Of a DNA stretch of 34,153 bases, positions 697 through 30,034 are shown piece after piece; within the stretch, counting starts at the first letter, position 1; each line of letters starts with the position of its first letter. Made by a program: the position numbers and the translations under genes. This stretch comes from a virus (lineage: Duplodnaviria > Heunggongvirae > Uroviricota > Caudoviricetes): the IMG/VR virus record IMGVR_UViG_2874968258_000005; one strand, written 5' to 3'. Below the pieces are notes generated by a model. The model ran no database searches and was not told where the DNA came from. It saw only the letters and a program-made list of their open reading frames with translations.

Positions 697-832
697 AATA
701 CAGCTCCGTGGGATGCTCCCGGGCACTCGATATGACAATGTAACGTTTACAGCGAGGACATTTGATTTCTATATGCTTAAAACCTCCTTTAAACAGCAAT
801 TTATTGCAATTTTTACAACGAACAGAGTCCAT
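647..832 (-). CDS. com: Com, zinc-finger translational activator of mom
   Basis: 61-aa product [14 protein letters not shown]...CPRCKR...[12 protein letters not shown] with a CxxC...CxxC zinc-finger pattern matching Mu Com. ATG at 832 preceded by GGGGGAA. 3' end overlaps the mom start region. Confidence 0.8.
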
Positions 833-906
833 AATTTCCCCCAGTGTAATAACAGGATATAGCTGCCCGGAGGGCTGGGGGTATTTAATCACACTTGATG
901 CAAACC

Positions 907-934
907 GACGATCGATATGATGCTATCGATCGTC
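907..934. promoter_or_regulatory. Inverted repeat carrying two GATC (Dam) sites upstream of com-mom; candidate methylation-sensitive regulatory site of the mom promoter
   Basis: GACGATCGATA-tgatgc-TATCGATCGTC: 11-bp perfect inverted arms, each with a GATC, about 75-100 bp upstream of the com start on the transcribed strand. Confidence 0.5.
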
Positions 935-956
935 ATAAACTATACAAACTGATTAT

Positions 957-1523
957 TTAATCGCCTGGTCTGAACGCTCTCACCTCGTCCAGTGTGGGCA
1001 ACAGAGAAAGTTGTTCTTTCATCTCCCGCTGACAGCGATAAATCTCATCGTTGCGCTCAACAATGGCCTGTATCATCGCTGTGGCCAGTTCCTCAAGTTC
1101 CTGCGTCGTCAGCTGCACCTGCTGATTATCCGCATCACTCCACGCCATATGTGTTTGTGCCGCGACAGATTTTGCCAGCATGACCACCGGGGACAGGCGG
1201 GCCACTGACGAGGCGTCAGCGTTCCACGTGCGACCGTTCCATTCAAACGTGAACGGCTTCGCCTCCTGTTCTGTGCGCCATGCTTCAATTCCCTGACGTC
1301 TGGCCTCTCTGGCCGCTTCCAGCATTTCTGGTGTCACAGTGAATGGGGCTATCTCACCCCATTTGCCGCTTTGCAGTTCCTGCCAGATTTGCTGACCCGT
1401 CGGAGCGACATCATCAGCGGTGGCTGTGTAGGGGACTGCCTGGTCCCTGTCGTCAAAAAAAACGTCACAGTCTACTGCGCCACTTTCGGTATAACGGGGA
1501 TTAATGATTTTTTTAATTTCCAC
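957..1523 (-). CDS. Tail fibre assembly protein (chaperone) for the second fibre
   Basis: Sits immediately after a fibre gene; size and position typical of Tfa. Start chosen at the in-frame GTG at 1523, preceded by GAGGAA and just after the fibre stop at 1534; the track ORF extends to 1583. Confidence 0.55.
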   Translation of the reverse strand: MEIKKIINPRYTESGAVDCDVFFDDRDQAVPYTATADDVAPTGQQIWQELQSGKWGEIAPFTVTPEMLEAAREARRQGIEAWRTEQEAKPFTFEWNGRTWNADASSVARLSPVVMLAKSVAAQTHMAWSDADNQQVQLTTQELEELATAMIQAIVERNDEIYRCQREMKEQLSLLPTLDEVRAFRPGD

Positions 1524-2937: not shown

Positions 2938-3469
2938 CGGGACGCTCCGGCCAGTTGATGGCGTTATATGTGGCTTTATCTGTGATGGTGCTGAAATCCA
3001 TCGCCTGCAGCGATTTCGCGTAAATACGGTACGCTTTCAGTTTTTCCCGGTCTTCGTCGCTGATTAGCCCCAGCAGCAGGTCTTCTTCCCATTCCCCTGT
3101 CCGGGCACTGACCTGAGCCAGAAGGGCATCACGCTCATCTTCCGCTTTGAGTCTGTAGTCAAAGACAAATTCATCATTGCGGTAAAACCAGTAACCCGGC
3201 GCGGTAATGCGGCGGTTGGCGGTAATATCAGGAACTTCAATAACACTGGCGTTACGGGGTTCAATGCCTGTCACATCCTTACCGACCCACACCACGCGCC
3301 CGTCTCCGGTGTAAACCATTTTTATGGTGTCACTGGCAAAGTTCTTCTGTTCTTCATACCAGTTTTTGCCGTCTTCCGAAAAAAGCCAGGTGACATCATA
3401 CTGTTTTGTCAGCTGATATTGTTCCGCGGTTTTCGGATTACCTGCCGTAATATTTTTTAAATGCAACAT
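2924..3469 (-). CDS. Tail fibre assembly protein (Mu U / lambda Tfa-like) for the first fibre
   Basis: 181 aa directly after the S-like fibre. C-terminal region (...KLKAYRIYAKSLQAMDFSTITDKATYNAINWPERP) resembles the Tfa C-terminal domain. Confidence 0.7.
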   Translation of the reverse strand: MLHLKNITAGNPKTAEQYQLTKQYDVTWLFSEDGKNWYEEQKNFASDTIKMVYTGDGRVVWVGKDVTGIEPRNASVIEVPDITANRRITAPGYWFYRNDEFVFDYRLKAEDERDALLAQVSARTGEWEEDLLLGLISDEDREKLKAYRIYAKSLQAMDFSTITDKATYNAINWPERPDAAA

Positions 3470-6663: not shown

Positions 6664-7196
6664 ACGGGCGGTGATGTCTTCTCATTGTCGCCGTCCTTAT
6701 GAATGTGTTCGCTGAATGATTTACCCTTGATTCTGACATCTTCAGTAAATTCACAGGGACCGACGAATTTCATTTGTTTACCGATAATATTCAGCAATTC
6801 GTCGGCGGTGAGATTTACCGTTTTCCCTGAAACGTCTACCTGTTCTCCTGTGATTTCAATGACGCCGTTTTCCTTCAGGGTGATGTGTGATTTGCCGTCC
6901 CGGTGATACACCCTGACATCGCCGGGGGACAGTCCTTTCGGGCGACATCGCTTGTCTTCCACCGCGATGGCAACCAGCCCGTCACGCCGTCCGCCAACGG
7001 CCAGCACAATGGCTTCAGAACCTTCCGGCGGAACGGACGTAAACCCGTAGTTCTGGAAGCGTTCCACGTCGTCATCGGTGGCATCTGCCAGCGTCTGAAT
7101 TTGCAGGTTCTGCCGTGCCAGACCGTCAGACACCAGGCGGACAACAGCGCGGTCAACCATCAGTCGCAGGCGGCGGGCAATTGCGTTTAATCCCAT
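6660..7196 (-). CDS. Baseplate spike/assembly protein V-like (Mu gp45-like)
   Basis: 178 aa following the hub gene, with features typical of gpV-type spikes. Confidence 0.6.
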   Translation of the reverse strand: MGLNAIARRLRLMVDRAVVRLVSDGLARQNLQIQTLADATDDDVERFQNYGFTSVPPEGSEAIVLAVGGRRDGLVAIAVEDKRCRPKGLSPGDVRVYHRDGKSHITLKENGVIEITGEQVDVSGKTVNLTADELLNIIGKQMKFVGPCEFTEDVRIKGKSFSEHIHKDGDNEKTSPPV

Positions 7197-8257: not shown

Positions 8258-9531
8258 CAGTCGGTGATCTCCACAGGTTGCGTCGGCAGGATGAATGACG
8301 GATGACGCAGGCGGTTACGCTGCACGATTTCATCCCGTCGGCGTGTGTCACCATGCTCGCGCCATGCCAGCAATGCGGCAGAGGTGGTTGTGGTCAGCGT
8401 CACCTGCCGGGTTTCCGGCAGACGGGCGGCACGCTCGCGGGCATCCGTAATCACGGCCTGCCGTAAATCGCGCAGCGTTCGCCACAATGTCCGCTGGTTG
8501 TTTTCCACCGCCGCCACCGCCTGCTCATGCAGTTCAGCCGCCAGCGTGTCACCGGCAGATAACGCCGCATCACGGGTATCGAACGTCATCGAGGCCACGG
8601 CACTGGCCTGTCCCAGCAGGGCTCCCAGCACAACCACCTGGCGGAAGTCGTCAATGTTCTTTTGCAGGCTGTCAGATACCGGCTGATAATCCGGTGACAG
8701 CCCGATGGCAAAGCCGGGGTTGCCGTCTGCCACGCTGCCGGGCTTCACGGTGATATCTTCCGGCAGTGCGCCGGTGGCAATCTGCCTGGCACGTTCTCCG
8801 GCCCACTGGTTGCGTAATGTCGTGTAAACCGCCAGTGCTTCGGGTGGTTCCGTCACAAGGCCCGCAATATCTTCCACCCGTGCTGACAGCTCACTGACCA
8901 GACGCCCCGGTGTGGCAATGAGAGTTCCGGCCATCGCCTTAAAATGCTTCAGCCTGTCCATCCACTGATTCAGTGCTGCCGGTAACGTGGGCAGGTTAGC
9001 CACAAGGTTTTCCATATCGGCCAGAAAACTGTCGGCCATGTCACCCAGCCCGTCGAGTGCGCCGAACCAGTCGCCATCGTCAATGGCGGCTTTCACCGCA
9101 TCAATGCCTGTCAGCACTTCCTGCTGCGTGTTATCCGCCGCAGACGGGAACAGGCGCTCGCCTGCCTCAAACACTTCAAAGGTGACATACGCAATGCCGT
9201 CTTCCTCCGTGCTGAGGCGATGGGTGACCTTGCCAACCTGTACGGTCTGTATCCCGAACCACGGGTGGACAAGCTCGCCGGGGCCGGGGGTATTGAGCGC
9301 ATCTAAAAGGGCGTTTAAATCATCCCGGAAGTTTTTACCTGGCAGCTTTGCGTTAATCTGCTGTTGCCCCGGAACGGCCCCGTTATCATCCGTCCAGGCG
9401 GTTTCACGCCGGGGATAAGCACGGGGAATGGCACGACGACCACCGGTGCCCTCCGTATCCACCAGAAAGAAGGGGACGCCACGAAACGAGGCGTCGCGCA
9501 GCCCGTCCCATTTACCGTTGCTCGTTGTCAT
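8257..9531 (-). CDS. Mu N-like protein (DNA circularisation protein family), tail/baseplate associated
   Basis: 424 aa directly after the tape measure gene, as for Mu gene N (gp43). Confidence 0.55.
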   Translation of the reverse strand: MTTSNGKWDGLRDASFRGVPFFLVDTEGTGGRRAIPRAYPRRETAWTDDNGAVPGQQQINAKLPGKNFRDDLNALLDALNTPGPGELVHPWFGIQTVQVGKVTHRLSTEEDGIAYVTFEVFEAGERLFPSAADNTQQEVLTGIDAVKAAIDDGDWFGALDGLGDMADSFLADMENLVANLPTLPAALNQWMDRLKHFKAMAGTLIATPGRLVSELSARVEDIAGLVTEPPEALAVYTTLRNQWAGERARQIATGALPEDITVKPGSVADGNPGFAIGLSPDYQPVSDSLQKNIDDFRQVVVLGALLGQASAVASMTFDTRDAALSAGDTLAAELHEQAVAAVENNQRTLWRTLRDLRQAVITDARERAARLPETRQVTLTTTTSAALLAWREHGDTRRRDEIVQRNRLRHPSFILPTQPVEITD

Positions 9532-18633: not shown

Positions 18634-20197
18634 GAGCAGTGTCTCCCAGCGCACGCGCCTTAAAGCACACCTCCGCCAGTTGCAGGGCAAAGTCGTCCGC
18701 GTTCAGCGTTTCCTGAAGCTCAGGCAGGCGTTTCAGAAAGTCATCAAAACTGTCGCACTCCTGCGCCAGTGTCAGCACCGGGTTCGTGAACGCCTCGCCG
18801 GTTTTCTGCCAGTCACGCAGGGCATCATCCACCATCTGTGCCAGTTCGTCGGGGTGTTCCCTGTTCAGGGCGACGCGCTCGCGGTTCATCGCCATATCAC
18901 CCGGCATCCCGGCGGAAACCGGATGCAGAACATCAGCCCCTTCGTCTGGCTCAGCCAGGCCGAACCGGTCCCGCAGCTCCGATTCCTGAACCCGCATCCC
19001 CCGGTCAATCAGCGGCACCAGAGCATCCGTCAGCGCCTTCAGATCTTCGGCTTCACTGATACGCAGAACAACACGGGGGTAGTGCGCCTGTGGCCCGTAG
19101 TTGGCCTCGATGTAGGGCCGCACCAGATATTCATTCAGCGTGTTAGCCAGCTGTCGCGCGTCCCAGCGCACAATGTCCATGCGCACCTGATTGTGCACGT
19201 CCGCCTGTGAACGCGAACTGCCGTTATCCGTGGTCATGGTCTGCCCCAGCACAGCCTTACTGATTTGCGCATCGCACCATTCCGCCATTTCACGGAACAG
19301 TGCGCCGCCGTTATTCCGGCTGGCGGTTTCCTGCATCTCCAGTTGCATGGACTGCGGAATGGCACACCCGGCATCCGAGGCAATGGAGGCAATCGCATCA
19401 ATCAGCACGCGGATTTGCTCCTCCGTGGCGTTGGGACCGTATTTCCCCACCGTAACCGGAATGCCGAATTTTTCCGCAAATGCCCACCAGTCGCGCACGG
19501 TAAAGGATTTCAGCATGTACATCACAGCCACCAGACGGGCCAGACCGTTACGCAGCGGCAGACCGGATTTCAGACGCGGCTGGTGAACAATGAATTTTCC
19601 CGGTGTCAGCGGTACGCCATCCACCGGTTCATCGTCCGTCAGCAGGCGGAACTGGCGCAGCGTGGGCTTTTCGGCTTTCAGAAAACGGGGATCAACCCAC
19701 TCATAATCACGGGGCATCCAGTGGTTGTTGCGGGTGTCCCACAGGATTTCACAGACCGCCACGCCTTTTCCCAGCCCGTCGAGCAAATCAAACATCAGTT
19801 CGGGGATTTGCGGGGCTTCCATCAGCGCACGGATGGCGTCCGCCAGCTGCACGTCGGCATCGTCATCACTGGCGGCCACCACCACCGGTTCGATACCTGC
19901 CACTGTCAGCTTGCGGGTGCGCAGCACCGAGGCGTAATGCAAATCACGTTCTTCCATCTCTTCGGCAAGGATAAAAAAATCACGCGTGATGCCGTCGGCG
20001 GCATTGCGCAGAATGCCTGCCAGCCTGCCGGGGTTCAGCCCGGAGGCGACGCTGATACCCGGCGAGGCCGGACGCACACCGGCATGACGCGGACGGGCCT
20101 GTGCTTCGTTGAGCGCCTCTTTTTTCAGCGTGTCTTCCTCACCGGTTGCCGGATTCAGCAGACGGCGAACGGCCCCGGCCAGTTGTTTCAGGTTCAC
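18626..20197 (-). CDS. Portal protein (Mu H / gp29-like, DUF935)
   Basis: 523 aa immediately after the large terminase, start overlapping the terminase stop. Confidence 0.85.
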   Translation of the reverse strand: MNLKQLAGAVRRLLNPATGEEDTLKKEALNEAQARPRHAGVRPASPGISVASGLNPGRLAGILRNAADGITRDFFILAEEMEERDLHYASVLRTRKLTVAGIEPVVVAASDDDADVQLADAIRALMEAPQIPELMFDLLDGLGKGVAVCEILWDTRNNHWMPRDYEWVDPRFLKAEKPTLRQFRLLTDDEPVDGVPLTPGKFIVHQPRLKSGLPLRNGLARLVAVMYMLKSFTVRDWWAFAEKFGIPVTVGKYGPNATEEQIRVLIDAIASIASDAGCAIPQSMQLEMQETASRNNGGALFREMAEWCDAQISKAVLGQTMTTDNGSSRSQADVHNQVRMDIVRWDARQLANTLNEYLVRPYIEANYGPQAHYPRVVLRISEAEDLKALTDALVPLIDRGMRVQESELRDRFGLAEPDEGADVLHPVSAGMPGDMAMNRERVALNREHPDELAQMVDDALRDWQKTGEAFTNPVLTLAQECDSFDDFLKRLPELQETLNADDFALQLAEVCFKARALGDTAHA

Positions 20198-21729
20198 AGT
20201 AAACCTCCCTCATTTTTCAGGCCGCGTGTCAGCTTCATCTGGCGGCGCGCGTTGCCTTCTTCCGGTTTCGCCGGGCGGTTCAGGCGGTGCAGCTCGTAAC
20301 GGTGGCAGTCATCTTTACTGGCAAGGAAGCCCAGGAAAATAGCCACAGCGGCGTCGCCGTGACGCTTGCGGCCATCACTGCCTTTAGTACGGGCATCGTC
20401 AATACCGGGAACGCCACGCAGTAACTGAATGGCCCCGAGGTCATTGATCACATCTTCATGCTTCGGAAGGATCAGCTCATCATCTTCAAACGCCGCACGG
20501 AAACGGGGCATGTTTTCGCGGTAGAACGCCACGGACAGCATCACCTGTTCCACCTCGTCGCCGTATCGTTCTGCCGCCTGTTCTGCCAGATACTGACCAT
20601 TACCCCGCGCATCCATTTTGATACCGTCACGACGGGGCAGACGATCGCAAAGCCAGAACAGCACCTGCTCCTGCTGTTTAAACGGCACATTGGCAAGCTC
20701 AACCAGAAACGGCACCTCGCGGGTGGTGTCGTCGTTCACCGTCACCGGGGCCAGCACGGTCAGGTCACCCGAACGCGCAAAGTCTTCCCCCAGACAGTGG
20801 CGCAGATTCTTCGGGAGTTTTTCCAGCTCAGGGCGCACCACCGTTTCCAGCCATTCCCTGATCTCTGCCCGGCGCTGGCCTTCCGTCAGTGCGTTAAATT
20901 CCGGTGTGCCGGTAAAGCGCAACACTTTTCCGGTGCCACGGGCCGCACGTTCACGCAGTGAGCGGGGGATATACGTGCCGCCGCCGTTTTTCGGGACGCA
21001 GTAATACTCCTCCAGCGCATCTTCGCGGGTGGCGGTATTTCGCAGCAGGCCTTCTTTCCATTCCACCTCGGCTTCCGGTGACCACACCATGCCGCGCACC
21101 TGACAGATACGCCGGTACAGCCCGTCATTACAGGCGTCATCCAGCGTGATGGTGTGAATACGGTAATCTTTTTTGCCCGCGCGGCTTTCCTGAATCAGCT
21201 GGTTAAACGGGTTGTCCACGCCGTCATGGGTGGAGATAAGGCGAACCTTACCGCCCCACGTGGTCAGTGGTGTGACCGCCTTGAGTACCTCATCCAGCTT
21301 TTCATGAAACGCCGCTTCGTCGATGGTGACATTCCCCTGCATCCCGCGAATGTTGCCCGGATTACTGGACAGCGCCTTGACCTTAAATCCGCTGGCGAAG
21401 TACACGACGAACGTCAGAATGTCCTTGTCTTCGTCGGTGATCACTTCCTCGCGGATTTCTTCCGCGGCTGCATTAAACGCTTTTGCCCACATCGCCACGG
21501 CGTCGATAAATTCGCGGGCCATCTCCTTGTTCGAACCGATGTAAAAGTGATCGCGCCCGCCGTTTTCCTTCTTCAGTGATGCGGTCAGTGCCGCATCTGC
21601 CGCTTCCGCCCAGGTTAAACCGGTACGGCGCGATTTTTCGGCGATTTTCAGTTTTGAATCATCCGCCACCCAGCGTTTCTGATACGGCAGCAGAACATCG
21701 GATTCACTGAATGCGTTCATCTGTGTCAT
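20194..21729 (-). CDS. Terminase large subunit (Mu gp28-like)
   Basis: 511 aa with an N-terminal ATPase-like region and a C-terminal nuclease-like region (DARGNG). Confidence 0.85.
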   Translation of the reverse strand: MTQMNAFSESDVLLPYQKRWVADDSKLKIAEKSRRTGLTWAEAADAALTASLKKENGGRDHFYIGSNKEMAREFIDAVAMWAKAFNAAAEEIREEVITDEDKDILTFVVYFASGFKVKALSSNPGNIRGMQGNVTIDEAAFHEKLDEVLKAVTPLTTWGGKVRLISTHDGVDNPFNQLIQESRAGKKDYRIHTITLDDACNDGLYRRICQVRGMVWSPEAEVEWKEGLLRNTATREDALEEYYCVPKNGGGTYIPRSLRERAARGTGKVLRFTGTPEFNALTEGQRRAEIREWLETVVRPELEKLPKNLRHCLGEDFARSGDLTVLAPVTVNDDTTREVPFLVELANVPFKQQEQVLFWLCDRLPRRDGIKMDARGNGQYLAEQAAERYGDEVEQVMLSVAFYRENMPRFRAAFEDDELILPKHEDVINDLGAIQLLRGVPGIDDARTKGSDGRKRHGDAAVAIFLGFLASKDDCHRYELHRLNRPAKPEEGNARRQMKLTRGLKNEGGLL

Positions 21730-22307
21730 ACACTAATCCCCAGAATTTCACGTTTGATGGTGTCAGCCGCACCGCCTGACAGACCGCCCGCTCTGACCAG
21801 CTCTTCGGTTTTCTCTGCCATTTCCTGCGCAAACGCATCGCGGATTGCTTTTTCGCGTTTATGGCTGGTCATGGCTGCCGCTTCCAGACGCTGGGCAACC
21901 AGCGCCAGTTGCCCCAGCGCCTTCGGTGCAACAGGTTTGTCGTCTTCTGTCATCGACATGGACGTTTCAAAGGCCAGCGTTTTTACAAACTCCATCAGCA
22001 GCCTGCCGACGTCTGACGTCGGCGCGGAACCCAGCTTTGCCGCCCAGACTTCGGCCATTTCGCGGGAGGCACGGATTTTTGCCCCGACTTTTTCCATGCG
22101 GCTGGCATAGCGGTTTAAGCCCGTCCGGCTTAACTGCATCTCCCCCGGCAGGTTGTGTTCGTCAATCAGGGCATTGATGGCTTCGCGGATTTCTTCCTGC
22201 GTGTGCCGCTTTTCCCGCAGCATCTGGTGTAACTGCTCACGGATGCTGTCCGGGAGTAAATCCACTTTGGAAAGACGGCCACGGGTGGGGCGTTGTTCAT
22301 TTTCCAT
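21726..22307 (-). CDS. Mu gp27-like protein (DUF3486), putative small terminase / DNA-recognition subunit
   Basis: 193 aa, helical and charged, directly upstream of and coupled to the large terminase (ATGA overlap). Confidence 0.5.
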   Translation of the reverse strand: MENEQRPTRGRLSKVDLLPDSIREQLHQMLREKRHTQEEIREAINALIDEHNLPGEMQLSRTGLNRYASRMEKVGAKIRASREMAEVWAAKLGSAPTSDVGRLLMEFVKTLAFETSMSMTEDDKPVAPKALGQLALVAQRLEAAAMTSHKREKAIRDAFAQEMAEKTEELVRAGGLSGGAADTIKREILGISV

Positions 22308-22584
22308 CTTCTGTCCTCTGTGTTTTCAGACCAGCGTATATTTCTTCACGAACGGACTGAATATCCTTACCTGGCAGCTTCCACAGCCGCGCACATGCCG
22401 GTGATGACCGCAGGGCGCGTTTCATGGGGGTATCCGGTGCATCCGGGTTCCAGGGCTTTCCTGTATGTTTTTCGTATGCACGGACAATGGCGTTTTGCTC
22501 AATGTCTGCCAGCACAAGGCAGTACGCCAGCTGCCGCACGACGGCCCGTTCTCCACGACTTAACGGCTTCAGTTTTCGGGCCAT
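22297..22584 (-). CDS. Mu gp26-like small protein
   Basis: 95 aa upstream of the gp27-like gene by synteny. Confidence 0.4.
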   Translation of the reverse strand: MARKLKPLSRGERAVVRQLAYCLVLADIEQNAIVRAYEKHTGKPWNPDAPDTPMKRALRSSPACARLWKLPGKDIQSVREEIYAGLKTQRTEDGK

Positions 22585-22586
22585 GT

Positions 22587-22880
22587 TCAGTCCCTCGCAC
22601 GGGGTTTTTTAACGCCCGGCACACCGGACAGGCCGTTTGCCACATCCTCGCCGCTGCCGGTGATTTCAGCCACGTAACAGCCGCCCACATCAGACAGACG
22701 AACCAGCCCCTGCTCGCGCAGCCATGCAAGCTGGGTGCGCACCACATCACGGGATACCTTATGACCGTAGGCCTGAAGGCAGGTCTGCAACACGGATTCA
22801 TTCGCGCTGTCGCCACAGTCCAGCAGGGAACGCAGCAACACCAGACGACGGTCTTCAGTGAGGATCTCTTTCATCGCCAT
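22587..22880 (-). CDS. Small winged-helix-like DNA-binding protein (function unknown)
   Basis: 97 aa with a helix-turn-helix-like segment (...VSRDVVRTQLAWLREQGLVRL...). Confidence 0.4.
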   Translation of the reverse strand: MAMKEILTEDRRLVLLRSLLDCGDSANESVLQTCLQAYGHKVSRDVVRTQLAWLREQGLVRLSDVGGCYVAEITGSGEDVANGLSGVPGVKKPRARD

Positions 22881-23185
22881 TAATTTTTTTCCTTTAATTC
22901 GTTCTCTAATAACAAATCGCTGATGCGGGATACCTGGCGGATGGATGGCCCCAGCTCTTTGATTTCACCCCGCAGGTTGCTGATATCCAGTTGCAGGCGG
23001 TGAAATTCATTGCGGTCGGGTAGCTGATTCACCAGGCCTTCCATCACCGACACGCGGGAACGCAGCGAATCAAACTCTTCGCGTTTGACGTAAGTCTTCG
23101 CCAGAATCAGCTGAATCAGGTTTATTGCTGTCATCAACAGCGCCCATAAAACAGGCCAGTTGGCCCGGATCACTTCCCAGGACAC
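22880..23185 (-). CDS. Membrane-anchored coiled-coil protein (i-spanin-like topology; lysis-associated?)
   Basis: 101 aa with an N-terminal hydrophobic helix (WPVLWALLMTAINLIQLIL) and then a coiled-coil. Confidence 0.4.
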   Translation of the reverse strand: MSWEVIRANWPVLWALLMTAINLIQLILAKTYVKREEFDSLRSRVSVMEGLVNQLPDRNEFHRLQLDISNLRGEIKELGPSIRQVSRISDLLLENELKEKN

Positions 23186-23397
23186 GTCTTCCTCCTGTGT
23201 TCCCGCGCCTGCTGGCAGTCAATACAGGTCACCACATCCGGCAGCACCGCAAGGCGCTGTGCCGGAATAACGTTCCCGCAGTCATTGCAGAAGCCCCGAC
23301 TGTGGGGTGCTTCTTTTATCCGCATCAGCCAGGCGTTAACGACGTCCTGACGTTCGTTTAAAACCACTTCACTGATGCGGTCGGTTTCATCGGTCAT
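23170..23397 (-). CDS. TraR/DksA-family C4 zinc-finger protein
   Basis: 75 aa with CNDCGNVIPAQRLAVLPDVVTCIDCQ, a C4 zinc-finger spacing typical of phage TraR/DksA-like proteins. Confidence 0.6.
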   Translation of the reverse strand: MTDETDRISEVVLNERQDVVNAWLMRIKEAPHSRGFCNDCGNVIPAQRLAVLPDVVTCIDCQQAREHRRKTCPGK

Positions 23398-24002
23398 TTC
23401 GGCCCCGCTGATATTTTGTGACAGCTCGATTTGCTGTAACGGGCAAAGCCGTCAAGGGTTCTTACCCCGAGATAGCCCAGCGCCGGGGTAAACAACATCA
23501 GCGTGATATCCCAGTCCGGTGACGGCATATGCAGCGTGATACCGTTCGCACCGGCAACCGCACCGGCAATCTGGCCACAGGAGAGCAACAGCACATAGGC
23601 CAGACTGCTGTAACAGGACAGACGGGCCAGCAACGGGCGCGTCTGGCGCACATAGCTGTCCGTGGCGTTGTCACCGTTGCGGATGGTTTCCTGTTGTTCG
23701 TGGTGAGCGGCCTGCTGGTCAGCCAGCACCAGCTTCTGCCGCTCCACCTCCAGCTGTTGCAGCTGGACTTTCAGGGTTTCCAGCTGCACCAGTTGCTCCG
23801 GTGACAGCATCACCAGTTTTTGTTCCAGAATGCGTTGCTGTTCAGCCACCGGCAGGCTTTCCCGGACGCTTTCCACCATACCGGCCACCGAGTCAGCGGC
23901 GGCAGATGTGCTGCCACCAAACCAGCGCCCGACGGAACGAATCAGCCCCGGCCCGGCTTTCAGCAGAACGGAGGCGATGCCTGAAAGGGTTAACGGGTCC
24001 AT
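23394..24002 (-). CDS. Coiled-coil protein with C-terminal transmembrane segments (lysis-cluster membrane protein)
   Basis: 202 aa with a central LQQLEVERQKL-type coiled-coil and hydrophobic C-terminal helices. Confidence 0.45.
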   Translation of the reverse strand: MDPLTLSGIASVLLKAGPGLIRSVGRWFGGSTSAAADSVAGMVESVRESLPVAEQQRILEQKLVMLSPEQLVQLETLKVQLQQLEVERQKLVLADQQAAHHEQQETIRNGDNATDSYVRQTRPLLARLSCYSSLAYVLLLSCGQIAGAVAGANGITLHMPSPDWDITLMLFTPALGYLGVRTLDGFARYSKSSCHKISAGPK

Positions 24003-24400
24003 GAATCCCCCTTATGAAAACGGCGCTGATGTTTATAAAGTGCCGCACAAAAGATACCGCCCAGCCAGAACGCCAGCTGATAAGGCTCCTTCAGATAAAG
24101 AAGGCCGAATGTCAGCATGAAAAAACCAACGGCCCAGACCACCCATGACCACACGACAATTCGAAGGGAGGCGGCCCGGAAACGCCTTTTGGGTTGCAGG
24201 CGATAAGGTACGTTGCCCAGCTGGAAACTGTGAATCAGGCAGAGTGTCGCGCCGTATGCCAGCACCATGACCGCAAACGCCTGCCATCCGGCAAAACAGC
24301 TCGCCAGAAAAAGGACTGCCGACAGCCCCAGAAACGACCACTGGCACAACATAAAGCGGGAGTAAATAACGCGAACAAAAAGACTATTCATTCTGTGCAT
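23990..24400 (-). CDS. Small polytopic membrane protein (about 4 TM helices), holin candidate
   Basis: Start taken at the internal ATG near 24400, preceded by an AAGGA RBS. Four hydrophobic helices; lies downstream of the endolysin. Confidence 0.45.
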   Translation of the reverse strand: MHRMNSLFVRVIYSRFMLCQWSFLGLSAVLFLASCFAGWQAFAVMVLAYGATLCLIHSFQLGNVPYRLQPKRRFRAASLRIVVWSWVVWAVGFFMLTFGLLYLKEPYQLAFWLGGIFCAALYKHQRRFHKGDSWTR

Positions 24401-24611
24401 TGAGTTTTTCCTTGTACTTCTGGCACTGCCAGAAAATGTCCCGTGTATCCACGGTGTTCCAGCCACGCATGTAGTGGCTGGCGTGTGTGCCGTCATGACC
24501 GGTATAGTCCAGCGGTTTCGGGGGCGGACCTCCGGCCATACGATGTAAAACCTCCTGACGCAGGCGGTCACGCCGCCCGGCTCTCAGCGAGGCATCCCAG
24601 CCTTTGCCCAT
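24384..24611 (-). CDS. Hypothetical 75-aa protein translationally coupled to the endolysin gene
   Basis: ATG 1 nt after the endolysin stop (TGAtATG). Confidence 0.35.
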   Translation of the reverse strand: MGKGWDASLRAGRRDRLRQEVLHRMAGGPPPKPLDYTGHDGTHASHYMRGWNTVDTRDIFWQCQKYKEKLNAQNE

Positions 24612-24612
24612 A

Positions 24613-25200
24613 TCATCCCCGCGTGACGGACGACACGTTGTCGATAATTTCCAGACAGGCGTCGGTCACTTTCTCCATGCGGTTAAACCAGCCGTTCAGG
24701 TATTTGCCCTGGGCAGGTTTGGATTTGATGATGTCGGCATAAAAGCGGGAACGACGGACAATGCAGCGGGTCAGCAACCAGTCCGGGGTGGACAGGCTCA
24801 CTGCCTTACGGGTACGCGGACCGATGATGCCGTCAGCATCCACATCAGCGGCTTCCTGCAAAATCCTGATAGCTTTTTTAACGCCATGCTGAACCGCCGC
24901 ATCGAACACAAACATCGCCACGCCATCAGGCCACTGGTCACATCCGGCAGGCAGCCAGTAATCGCGCCAGTAAATCTGCGCGACCTGTTCGCGGGTTAAA
25001 TCCCTGATGCGGGTATCCGGTTTACCGTCGCCGCTGACATCGGTTTTGCCGTCAATCACACCGTCGCGGCGGTCAGAAATGCCGTATCTGGTTTCGCCGC
25101 CACGGTCAGTGGGGTCATTGACATAGACGCCTTCGATATCGGGACGCAGAATAAAATTCAGCGCATACTCAAAGGCCGGGGAGAATTTTTGATTTTCCAT
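24613..25200 (-). CDS. Endolysin, GH108-type muramidase with C-terminal peptidoglycan-binding domain
   Basis: 195 aa. N-terminal ...FEYALNFILRPDIEGVYVNDPTDRGGETRYGI... is the GH108 signature region. AGGTG RBS. No SAR or signal-anchor segment. Confidence 0.8.
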   Translation of the reverse strand: MENQKFSPAFEYALNFILRPDIEGVYVNDPTDRGGETRYGISDRRDGVIDGKTDVSGDGKPDTRIRDLTREQVAQIYWRDYWLPAGCDQWPDGVAMFVFDAAVQHGVKKAIRILQEAADVDADGIIGPRTRKAVSLSTPDWLLTRCIVRRSRFYADIIKSKPAQGKYLNGWFNRMEKVTDACLEIIDNVSSVTRG

Positions 25201-25211
25201 AAAAGCACCTG

Positions 25212-25240
25212 TGAAGCAGATTTAAACGTGGTCTGCTTCA
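25212..25240 (-). promoter_or_regulatory. Stem-loop immediately upstream of the endolysin RBS
   Basis: TGAAGCAGA-(11 nt)-TCTGCTTCA, ending 2 nt before the AGGTG RBS. Confidence 0.3.
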
Positions 25241-25255
25241 TGGTGCCGGAGGCAT

Positions 25256-25281
25256 AAAAAAAGCCGGATTTACCGGCTTCA
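25256..25281 (-). terminator. Intrinsic terminator after mor (candidate end of the early/middle transcript)
   Basis: Same GAAGCCGG-TAAAT-CCGGCTTC + U7 element as at 17704-17729, about 5 nt after the mor stop. Confidence 0.6.
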
Positions 25282-25285
25282 TTGA

Positions 25286-25735
25286 TTAAGGACGTCGTGG
25301 CGGACGACGAACGGGGTGAGGCAGGTTCGGGGAGTGGTAAAACAAATCCGGCTGGTATTTATTACACTCCAGACGCCGCATCCGCTTGATGGCCTTGTAG
25401 ACGGTTTTATACGTCACCCCGTAACGCTGAACCAGTTCAGGAATATTATGGCCGTTAAAATCACGCCAGATACGCATATCCCGGACAAGATTCTCCAGAA
25501 TATTCCCCCTCGGAACATAAACCTGCATCCCGCCGATATAGCGACAAATCGCCACAACCAGCTCAAGGGAATGGGCAGGGTCTGCGCCAATCCGGGCCAG
25601 CTCTTTACGCAGCAGTGCGTTCAGTTCAGAAAGTAACGCCGGATAAGCCGTGTTTTCCTGGTAATCGTTAAGGTATTCCAGAACGCTGTCGTCCCGGAAG
25701 TCTTCGAATAAATCCTGCTCTTTCATCTGTTTCAT
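25286..25735 (-). CDS. mor: Mor/C-family transcription activator (Mor-like)
   Basis: 149 aa with ...YPALLSELNALLRKELARIGADPAHSLELVVAICRYIGGMQVYVPRG...WRDFNGHNIPELVQRYGVTYKTVYKAIKRMRR, matching the Mor/C family as I recall it. Coupled to gemA upstream, as in Mu. Confidence 0.75.
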   Translation of the reverse strand: MKQMKEQDLFEDFRDDSVLEYLNDYQENTAYPALLSELNALLRKELARIGADPAHSLELVVAICRYIGGMQVYVPRGNILENLVRDMRIWRDFNGHNIPELVQRYGVTYKTVYKAIKRMRRLECNKYQPDLFYHSPNLPHPVRRPPRRP

Positions 25736-26283
25736 ACAGCAATTCTCCCGCTGTTTCGTGCGCGGGCATATGCACTGGTCAGTGCATCATAGCCGCGCAG
25801 CTTCCGCCCGGTTTCGCTCACAGGTAAAGGCACACCATGTCGGGCAAAGGCTTCCCGGATGCAGCGCATATGCCACTGTTTGAGCGTTTCGAGCACAACA
25901 TGCAACGATTCCCCGTGACACCAGGCCAGCGTGGAAACACCCTGACCGCCATTACGTCTGGCCGTCAGGCGTTCAACGTATTTGTCCAGCGCAGCGTCGC
26001 TGATATCGGAGACGAAACCATCAAGGAACATCTGCTGCCAGATTTTATAAATCTTCTCGCGCGGTGTGACATGCCCCTTAAAGCGACGGCGGGGATGTTT
26101 TTTCTGCTTCTTAAAACCGCGCTCTTTCATGGCATCGAGCACACGTTCCAGTTGTGCAACGGACAGCTCGCGGCAACTGGTTTTGCCCGTGTGCTGCACC
26201 AGAAAGGCGCGGTAAGTGTCATCGTCGAGTTGTAGATCACGACGGGCGACATGAATTAATTTAATCAGGGATGTGCGATTCAT
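25732..26283 (-). CDS. gemA: GemA-like regulatory protein (DUF1018)
   Basis: Start at the internal ATG giving 183 aa (MNRTSLIKLIHVARRDLQLDDDTYRAFL...). Directly upstream of mor. Confidence 0.7.
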   Translation of the reverse strand: MNRTSLIKLIHVARRDLQLDDDTYRAFLVQHTGKTSCRELSVAQLERVLDAMKERGFKKQKKHPRRRFKGHVTPREKIYKIWQQMFLDGFVSDISDAALDKYVERLTARRNGGQGVSTLAWCHGESLHVVLETLKQWHMRCIREAFARHGVPLPVSETGRKLRGYDALTSAYARARNSGRIAV

Positions 26284-26290
26284 TATCGTA

Positions 26291-26324
26291 CCTCCAGAAA
26301 AGGGGGCGGTGCGGCAACACCGCC
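26291..26324 (-). promoter_or_regulatory. Hairpin plus U-rich tract in the gemA leader (attenuator/terminator-like)
   Basis: Minus-strand GGCGGTG-uugccg-CACCGCC followed by CCCCUUUUCUGGAGG, the last part being the gemA RBS. Confidence 0.35.
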
Positions 26325-26356
26325 AGAATCCACTCACTAAACAGAGGAAACTTTTT

Positions 26357-26623
26357 ATGAAAAACAGTGAACAGCCTTATGATGTTGCAGGGTATGTCAT
26401 TGCCTCAAGGTTGCTGATACTCCTTGTCAGAAAGGGGCTAATTACCGCAGAAGAAGGCAAAACGATCCTCGAAGCCGCAGCAAGCGGAGCGGCAGAGGCT
26501 CCGGCATTGAGAACAACGAATAATCCCATCCTGCAAATATCACAGCTAATCACTGATACCATCAGTTTGTTAGACCAAGATTCTGATGAATATCAAAAGC
26601 CTCAGCCATCTGAGCATCCGTAA
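26357..26623 (+). CDS. Candidate opposite-strand small gene (89 aa) inside the early operon
   Basis: ATG at 26357 preceded by AGAGGAAA at 7-nt spacing. Occupies an otherwise non-coding gap, convergent with the minus-strand gene ending at 26562. Confidence 0.3.
   Translation: MKNSEQPYDVAGYVIASRLLILLVRKGLITAEEGKTILEAAASGAAEAPALRTTNNPILQISQLITDTISLLDQDSDEYQKPQPSEHP
26377..26562 (-). CDS. Candidate small hydrophobic protein (61 aa), translationally coupled to the upstream gene
   Basis: ATG overlaps the upstream stop (TGATG). Hydrophobic stretch GLFVVLNAGASAAPLAAASRIVL. Competes with the + strand ORF at 26357..26623. Confidence 0.3.
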   Translation of the reverse strand: MVSVISCDICRMGLFVVLNAGASAAPLAAASRIVLPSSAVISPFLTRSISNLEAMTYPATS

Positions 26624-28776: not shown

Positions 28777-29064
28777 TTAATATTCACTGTATACAATGCC
28801 GGATACAGCACGATTGCTTAATTCCATCTTTTGGGCTATCACATGAATAGCCAGCCCTTCTTTATAAAGTTCACGGCATAAATATTTGTCGTGCTCACTG
28901 ACCTGGTATGCACACAACGATATTCCGTGCCTTCTGGCATGTGCCTGTAGGGCGGTTGGGGCAACTTTCAGTTTTTTCGCCATTTCCTCGACGGTCATTT
29001 TTCCGACACTGGCTTCGATAAATTCCCGGTCTTCGCGTGACCAGCGTTTACGATTACACGTCAT
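28777..29064 (-). CDS. Small DNA-binding protein with two helix-turn-helix-like segments
   Basis: ...RKRWSREDREFIEASVGKMTVEEMAKKLKVAPTALQAHARRHGI... AT-rich segment. Start taken at the internal ATG; the track ORF begins at 29076 (GTG). Confidence 0.5.
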   Translation of the reverse strand: MTCNRKRWSREDREFIEASVGKMTVEEMAKKLKVAPTALQAHARRHGISLCAYQVSEHDKYLCRELYKEGLAIHVIAQKMELSNRAVSGIVYSEY

Positions 29065-29076
29065 TCCGGTCACCAC

Positions 29077-29806: not shown

Positions 29807-30034
29807 TTAACGCCAGATAATCTGGCAGCCATTAAGGCGGGCCGTCCATACTGAACGGGCAACCCCTGATTTATGCTCCATAATCCTGACAGCGTTTCTG
29901 ACCAGCTCCGGTGGTGGGCAGGTGATTTCAAGTACCGGACGCGCCACGCCGAGATATGATTCATTTACGTGACTCCCGTGCGCCTGTAACCAGTTCTGCG
30001 CATCCGTTGCCATTTTTATATTTCGTGACATCAT
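29807..30034 (-). CDS. Kil-like small protein (first gene after B)
   Basis: 75 aa in the position of Mu kil (74 aa). Assignment is by synteny and size only. Confidence 0.4.

Follow-up and report, generated by a model that had tools for sequence, protein, structure and literature searches.

The 34,153 nucleotides (nt) of DNA analysed here (IMG/VR record IMGVR_UViG_2874968258_000005, hereafter the window) comprise a Mu-like Escherichia coli prophage from repressor to mom, with all phage genes on the minus strand. The prophage has one activator gene of the Mor/C family, a mor orthologue, and two elements homologous to the Mu middle promoter Pm, one between mor and the endolysin gene and the other in front of the head protease gene. 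We consider it likely that Mor activates the late operons directly, so that a two-tier cascade replaces the three tiers of Mu. The original prediction, made from the letters of the 85-base-pair (bp) gap after mor, had offered a two-step cascade run by the single Mor-like protein as one of two alternatives, and the comparative evidence now supports it, as the phages with Mor boxes at late genes are exclusively those without C. Where Mor binds, where transcription starts and when the genes are expressed are predicted from sequence throughout.

By sequence, recognition helix and gene position, the window protein is a Mor orthologue. It matches the Pfam Mor model over profile positions 3–107 of 107 (104.3 bits, E = 4.3e-30), falls in PHROG 532 ("late transcriptional activator", 8.5e-41), and is 61% identical to Mu Mor versus 32–33% to Mu C. 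Its recognition helix, TYKTVYKAIKRMRRL, is near-identical to that of Mu Mor (TFNTVYKAIRRMRRL) and unlike that of Mu C (SQPQIYQIIARQRKL), and mor overlaps gemA by 4 nt, the same as in Mu. The possibility that the annotated mor is really the C gene, with mor itself missing, is inapplicable to a protein that is Mor-like by identity, helix and gemA overlap. Residues G68, G69, Q71, Y73, P75 and G77 are invariant in an alignment with Mor and C, and the beta-strand linker residues GG..Y.P.G are present (conserved family residues are tabulated in PMC2582627); the C-terminal helix-turn-helix (HTH) gives sub-threshold matches to HTH_28 and HTH_23 at residues 94–121. The protein ends in QPDLF followed by a Pro/Arg-rich tail, YHSPNLPHPVRRPPRRP (mor 3' end, 25286..25330, minus). 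Reported as the family's C-terminal clamp-binding consensus, QPDLF also occurs in MuC (PMC12867686); Mu Mor has QPSLL at this place, and relatives of the window vary there (QPDLF, QPPLF, QYSLF).

We found no second Mor/C paralogue among the 639 six-frame open reading frames (ORFs) of at least 30 amino acids (aa). Searches of these ORFs by phmmer --max with Mu Mor, Mu C and window Mor returned mor only, the next match having E > 1, and a profile hidden Markov model built from Mor and C gave mor at 1.5e-68 and no second member, with the next match at E = 2.7. Both searches rule out a second family gene, so that the family-model search of all ORFs bears out the single Mor/C-family ORF first noticed in the sequence.

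The 85-bp gap holds both a terminator and a predicted promoter. Its bounds were given exactly in the original prediction (mor stop TAA at 25288..25286, endolysin ATG at 25200, gap 25285..25201, all on the minus strand), and the terminator and second hairpin placed between the two genes both fold. The first hairpin, GAAGCCGG-TAAAT-CCGGCTTT followed by T7, has an 8-bp stem, a 5-nt loop and a U7 tract, with a folding energy of -12.6 kcal/mol (z = -4.5; 0 of 200 shuffles as stable). It is also picked by a terminator scan, has the sequence and fold of an intrinsic (Rho-independent) terminator, and is invariant in 10 related loci and in Mu. An Rfam scan of 17400..25600 returned sub-threshold chance matches only.

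We numbered Mu Pm via the published primer JM1 (-87 to -48; PMC4390567, Table 1), and the primer "Mu Pm nt9163" of PMC9239132 covers the same bases. On this numbering the Mu Mor site, AGTAA-AGCCGG-TTAAT, lies at -51..-36 and is followed by CCGGC, T7 at -30..-24, TATCCT at -13..-8 and a start at Mu nt 9224, so that in Mu the hairpin after mor has the Mor site as its left arm and loop. The window aligns with Mu Pm base for base from the Mor box to the -10 hexamer, by way of CCGGC, T7 and a 10-nt spacer; positions 2 (A) and 6 (T) of the hexamer and the G next to it are invariant in the 10 loci and Mu. By homology with the Mu numbering, the predicted start of the lysis promoter is the A at 25232, seven bases past the hexamer. 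A search for a sigma-70 -35/-10 pair at both window Mor-box sites found none. By its alignment with Pm, the hairpin is a combined terminator and predicted Mor-dependent promoter orthologous to Mu Pm; its original description as a terminator stands but overlooked the hairpin's second identity, as orthologue of the Mor site and promoter of Mu Pm. The Mu hairpin is presumably terminator t9.2, a name for which a literature search gave nothing.

In two close relatives an additional ORF separates mor from the terminator/Mor box, and the box nonetheless remains adjacent to the endolysin gene. Neither ORF is a hidden Mor or C: that of E. coli strain 54214 (L002, 4310..4789; 159 aa) has a signal-peptide-like N terminus and lacks a Mor match, and that of Kp4866-3 (L004, 7958..8290; 110 aa) gave no tblastn match to Mor or C.

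The core of this element recurs once. On the coding strand the 19-mer AAGCCGGTAAATCCGGCTT occurs exactly twice in the window, at 25279..25261 and 17727..17709, where 0.01 would be expected by chance. The second copy sits where Mu has the C-dependent promoter PI, upstream of a protease gene that starts at 17654 (tblastn with Mu I gave matches in the related loci), and its predicted start, 17680, is again placed by homology with the Mu Pm numbering. The Mu G–I gap is homologous to the window protease gap around the annotated gyrase cut site and the core promoter (Mu PI CCGCAAACTGAC, window CCGCATACTGAC), with the activator box as the differing part. Of the places first suggested for a motif search (upstream of the endolysin, I, the tail genes and com), the endolysin and protease genes share a Mor box; no Mor box was found upstream of com, and the tail genes offered only a weak candidate inside coding sequence. 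In the same gap, three TTTT(T)GAAG repeats (window ~17740..17800, minus) align with the region around the Mu gyrase cut site 17879/17880, which suggests a conserved central gyrase site.

Both sites stand out by score. A 20-nt position weight matrix trained on 14 distinct boxes from relatives, with the window and Mu left out, gave 31.0 bits for the lysis site and 30.8 for the protease site against a shuffle maximum of 18.5. Applied to the Mu genome, it ranked Pm first (27.0 bits) and placed 0 C-dependent promoters among the ten best. We compared the window with Klebsiella phage Kp4866-3 and ten loci from Pluralibacter, Raoultella, Klebsiella, Serratia, Kluyvera and Brenneria. Each of these 12 sequences from six genera, the window included, has one activator gene; a Mor box precedes the lysis gene in 12/12 and the protease gene in 10/12. 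The distance from box to -10 hexamer is fixed, and the hexamers themselves are conserved (CAnnAT before the lysis gene, (C/G)A(C/T)ACT before the protease gene).

A survey covered 80 IMG/VR loci, 60 with a single activator and 20 with Mor and C. Among the single-activator loci the Mor box precedes the GH108 endolysin gene in 59/59, gp18 in 0/57 and the protease gene in 53/54, and the Mu-type lys gene is absent. Among the loci with both activators it precedes a GH108 endolysin gene in 7/7, gp18 in 13/20, the protease gene in 0/13 and Mu-type lys in 0/20, the sole Mor box being the one at Pm. Presence of the box at the head promoter is thus associated with lack of C (53/54 versus 0/13). Moreover, tblastn of window Mor against 50,697 phage records (E <= 1e-3, at which a divergent second copy could be missed) matched 76, of which 14 have two family members and 62 have one; the 14 are all Mu, D108, SfMu or Mu-like Yersinia and Escherichia phages. 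The C-less, single-activator layout is the normal state of Mu-like phages outside Muvirus, and the lack of C, at first taken as unusual, is shared with most Mor-matching records.

We propose that Mor, the last early product, would act at two Pm-type promoters that have no -35 element, binding at each a 16-bp Mor box whose centre lies ~43.5 bp upstream of where transcription would start. The first would front a lysis/packaging operon (endolysin, gp18-like gene, membrane proteins, TraR, gp25, gp26, terminase and onward) and the second the head protease gene, from which it could drive the head and tail genes. A search between the protease gene and the tail fibres found no terminators above chance, so one transcript may be enough. 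The element at 25283..25256 would serve in two forms. In RNA form, its hairpin and U7 would end early transcription; in DNA form, the Mor site would be made up of its left arm and loop, and the promoter spacer of its T run and following bases, with Mor-dependent transcripts starting ~24 nt downstream of the terminator.

Several observations weigh against this proposal. The half-sites AATGA/TAAAT differ from AGTAA/TTAAT of Mu at 3/10 positions, the dyad symmetry of the window Mor box is weaker than that of Mu, and CACCAT shares only three positions with TATAAT. We found no convincing third promoter for the tail genes, and com/mom has no Mor box and a promoter without a -35 element, so that this operon may need another factor. 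The evidence for this particular phage comes from sequence comparison.

On a rival account the repeated element is a reused intrinsic terminator and nothing else, the late genes being reached by read-through or antitermination from the early promoter or from unrecognised promoters; in its favour, both window copies are perfect GC-rich hairpins with T7, and the -10 hexamers are weak. We regard it as quite improbable, since in Mu the homologous sequence has been defined by experiment as a promoter that depends on Mor, and a mere terminator is not expected to track the absence of C as the protease box does. In the relatives, moreover, the protease copy has often lost the right arm of the hairpin and the T run while keeping the Mor-box half and the hexamer at fixed spacing, which indicates that promoter function is separable from terminator function. 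An origin of the prophage as a defective Mu derivative, with C lost by deletion and the late genes not expressible, would fit its being a prophage with one early ORF marked as frameshifted in the matching genome record. We give this almost no credence, for the same architecture recurs in 60 viral contigs, in 10 genomes of six genera and in Kp4866-3 (a GenBank record labelled complete genome and flagged UNVERIFIED), and a simple deletion would not put a Mor box in the place that the C box of Mu takes at the protease promoter.

The other alternative originally offered was that a non-homologous protein, the winged-helix ORF or the TraR/DksA ORF, had taken over the role of C, and to these an early HTH protein may be added. 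A TraR-family zinc-finger gene is indeed present here and has no counterpart in Mu (comparison with Mu gp24 gave none), the com/mom promoter may answer to another factor for want of a Mor box, and the early ORF 28777..29076 has weak sub-threshold HTH matches. We give such a substitute only a slim chance. The TraR gene is itself part of the late operon that the Mor-box promoter precedes, and so cannot be what turns this operon on; the "winged-helix ORF" is orthologous to Mu gp26 and is rejected as a C substitute since gp26 coexists with C in Mu and the gene likewise lies within the Mor-box operon. Mor boxes at the late promoters already account for activation, and a Pfam scan of the early region for another regulator returned only a Ner-like HTH, Gp11 and the one weak sub-threshold HTH. 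Both of the proteins first put forward are thus disfavoured relative to direct activation by Mor.

Neither a second Mor/C member nor exact C boxes at late promoters, the marks of a Mu-type three-tier cascade, were found. The exact consensus TTAT-N5-6-ATAA, the only form searched, is absent before the late genes, and its sole match in the window, in the early region at 29871, is at chance level; Mu has eight exact matches, Pmom included. Upstream of com (832..960, minus) the GATC-rich palindrome of Mu is kept, GACGATCGATA..TATCGATCGTC, and the promoter has the -10 hexamer TATCCT without a -35 element; neither a Mor box nor an exact C box was found in this region. The same region contains ATACCCCCAG, which resembles ATAACCCCAG of Mu PI but lies 3 nt nearer the hexamer. 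A third Mor-box candidate scores 19.3 bits, against a shuffle maximum of 18.5, and the homologous position in Kp4866-3 scores 16.9 bits; its conservation may be explained by the coding of the peptide GKTVN.

A second hairpin, whose 5' arm takes in the lysis hexamer, would pair the predicted start region with the ribosome-binding site. Folded as 25250..25201 and paired over 25247..25204, it has -21.2 kcal/mol (z = -5.95), versus -5.7 kcal/mol (z = -0.5) for RNA from the predicted start at 25232. As its 5' arm lies upstream of that start, it would form only in read-through RNA. A dyad is found at the same place in all 23 promoters first examined, Mu Pm included, with stem sequences that differ between phages; at Mu Pm, GTGATGA (-7..-1) pairs with TCATCAT at the gp18 start, and Mu PI also has a dyad in this position. 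This analysis is based on independent folds, not on alignment covariation: RNAalifold found no compensatory pairs in an alignment of the protease-promoter hairpin, in which divergent members are out of register. Across 73 distinct promoters, median folding energies of read-through RNA and RNA from the predicted start were -18.3 and -5.6 kcal/mol at the lysis/gp18 site and -13.0 and -2.3 kcal/mol at the protease site. The ribosome-binding site was less accessible in the read-through form at 57/73 promoters (a comparison without length matching), and 50-nt windows at Mor-box promoters were more structured than other gene starts (median -12.3 versus -9.1 kcal/mol, p = 2e-4).

We tentatively suggest that the dyad may block translation of read-through transcripts by pairing with the Shine-Dalgarno region. 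With greater doubt still, the terminator/Mor box, hexamer and dyad could form one conserved insulator module through which only Mor-initiated transcripts are translated; if so, classical Mu, where the dyad occurs at both Pm and PI, would share this mechanism, so far unrecognised there. Two points count against a translational lock: the difference in accessibility at the lysis promoter is modest (0.45 versus 0.52, without a length-matched control), and the start site is taken by homology with Mu. The hairpin may instead be a 5' stabiliser of late mRNA or a tandem terminator, a reading that we consider possible but somewhat unlikely. Stem-loops at the 5' end are a common means of mRNA stabilisation, the start here is a prediction, and CUUUUAU comes directly after the window stem. 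Against this reading stand the numbering of Mu Pm, which puts the start just past the corresponding 5' arm, and the U run beyond the stem, which relatives do not conserve.

Table 1. Positions in the window of the genes, boxes, hexamers and hairpins discussed in the text.
Feature	Position	Strand	Remarks
gemA (gp16 family)	25732..26337	minus	Pfam GemA 7e-33; gemA-mor synteny as in Mu
mor, 149 aa	25286..25735	minus	last early-operon gene; Pfam Mor 4.3e-30; only Mor/C-family gene
Intergenic region, 85 bp	25201..25285	minus	terminator plus Mor box, core promoter, second hairpin
Mor box AATGA-AGCCGG-TAAAT (5-6-5)	25268..25283	minus	predicted -51..-36; aligns with Mu Pm Mor site
Terminator hairpin and T7, early-operon end	25256..25280	minus	stem 25280-25273/25267-25260; T7 25262-25256
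-10 hexamer CACCAT	25240..25245	minus	22 nt after Mor box; same position as Mu Pm TATCCT
Second hairpin	25204..25247	minus	5' arm: -10 hexamer and -7..+1; 3' arm: Shine-Dalgarno AGGTG 25210..25206
GH108 endolysin gene	24613..25200	minus	first gene of Mor-box operon; Glyco_hydro_108 2e-23, PG_binding_3 2e-17
Mu gp18/E18 orthologue, 75 aa	24384..24611	minus	67% identity, 7e-36; directly after endolysin gene
TraR/DksA zinc-finger ORF	23170..23397	minus	Pfam zf-dskA_traR 1.8e-11; PHROG 54
Mu gp26 orthologue, 97 aa ("winged-helix ORF")	22587..22880	minus	61% identity, 4e-42
Second Mor box AGTGA-AGCCGG-TAAAT	17716..17731	minus	upstream of head protease gene; 30.8 bits
Second copy of hairpin and T7	17704..17728	minus	terminator scan
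-10 hexamer CATACT	17688..17693	minus	22 nt after Mor box; predicted start G at 17680
Dyad CCGTCG/CGACGG after protease-promoter hexamer	17684..17663	minus	overlaps Shine-Dalgarno GGAG
Head protease/scaffold gene (Mu I equivalent)	16698..17654	minus	"phage protease" in matching genome record; first gene of second Mor-box operon
Weak third Mor-box candidate GGGAA-AACGG-TAAAT	6813..6828	minus	inside baseplate V gene; TATTAT after 23 nt; 19.3 bits

The early part of the prophage runs, on the minus strand, from a ner-like gene through transposase A, B, further early genes, gam and gemA to mor. After the 85-bp gap come the GH108/PG_binding_3 endolysin gene, the 75-aa ORF, two membrane-protein ORFs and the TraR/DksA ORF, and then DUF2730 (Mu gp25), the 97-aa ORF, DUF3486 (gp27-like), terminase, portal, head and tail genes, com and mom. 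Positions 24000..26400 are 100% identical to a prophage of E. coli FDAARGOS_943, and related copies of this segment occur in 77 of 5,426 complete E. coli genomes. The FDAARGOS_943 record has two places matching the window, and its copy has ~160 bp extra between the gp27-like gene and the ORF upstream (window ~22285..22310; L003 18148..18286), so the window is not identical to that copy along its full length. The last prophage genes in the matching genome record (L005) are com and a mom-like gene, with host DNA directly after them; no C gene is therefore hidden beyond the window.

This layout will not surprise specialists, as single-activator Mu-like phages are the majority and are already in print. 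Mannheimia 3927AP2 and phiMhaMu2 and Haemophilus SuMu have a GH108 lys gene immediately after mor and lack C (PMC4553209, which gives no promoter analysis). The Mor proteins of Pasteurellaceae Mu-like phages are distant from that of the window, those of Pasteurella phages being ~30–33% identical. In one distant single-Mor phage, Pasteurella phage AFS-2018a (L019), a 26-nt motif, TCTTTAAA(C/G)CACTTTAAAATC, lies at 3108..3133 and 10318..10343, just upstream of the endolysin and head peptidase genes, and the terminators are separate and elsewhere; the same two-promoter logic recurs there with a different box. Within a literature search of incomplete coverage, we found no published description of Mor boxes at the late promoters of C-less phages. 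What the window adds is a testable wiring diagram for common enterobacterial Mu-like prophages, in which Mor would switch on the lysis/packaging and head operons via Pm-type promoters, of use in annotation and in explaining how a regulatory cascade can acquire a further tier.

Phages with both activators that also carry a GH108 endolysin gene link the two layouts. Mu gp18/E18 is the first gene of the Mu middle operon, and its 75-aa orthologue makes the window lysis operon syntenic with that operon. In some phages with Mor and C, a GH108 endolysin gene whose product is 71% identical to that of the window lies between Pm and a gp18-like gene; the carriers include the isolated Yersinia phages vB_YpM_5 and vB_YpM_6 (MT374853, MT374854) and related IMG/VR contigs such as L066 (10385..12395). 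Since the GH108 gene directly follows Pm in these phages, the window lysis promoter is the positional orthologue of Pm. They share with the window the order mor, Pm, GH108 endolysin gene and gp18-like gene. In contrast to the window, vB_YpM_5, vB_YpM_6 and related contigs also have C, Plys and a Mu-type endolysin gene downstream, and their protease gene has no Mor box; phages of this kind have two endolysin genes under different activators. Because the gene after the window endolysin is gp18 and some phages with Mor and C have GH108 after Pm, we infer that an ancestral late operon driven by Mor was split by a C-Plys-endolysin module, and that the middle operon of Mu resembles its front end. 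On that reading the protease promoter would have been retargeted from Mor to C.

The closest known counterpart of the lysis promoter is Pm of Mu. In both phages the element follows gemA and mor with near-identical sequence, AAGCCGGT(A/T)AATCCGGCTTTTTTT, the same 5-6-5 box geometry, the same 22 nt to the -10 hexamer and no -35 element. The Mu order at the corresponding place is gemA, mor, gp18, gp19, gp20, C and lys: Pm drives gp18-gp19-gp20-C and C then activates the late promoters, whereas the window promoter would drive the endolysin gene and late operon directly. Like Mu PI, the protease promoter stands in front of the protease gene, contains the homologous core CCGCA-ACTGAC and shows a dyad past its -10 hexamer. 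C-dependent promoters have a 16-bp activator element centred at -43.5 (PMC2582627), and this activator geometry is the same in Plys, PI, PP and Pmom, which are promoters of late Mu genes, as in the window; the difference is that the window has no C gene and its activator box is of the Mor type.

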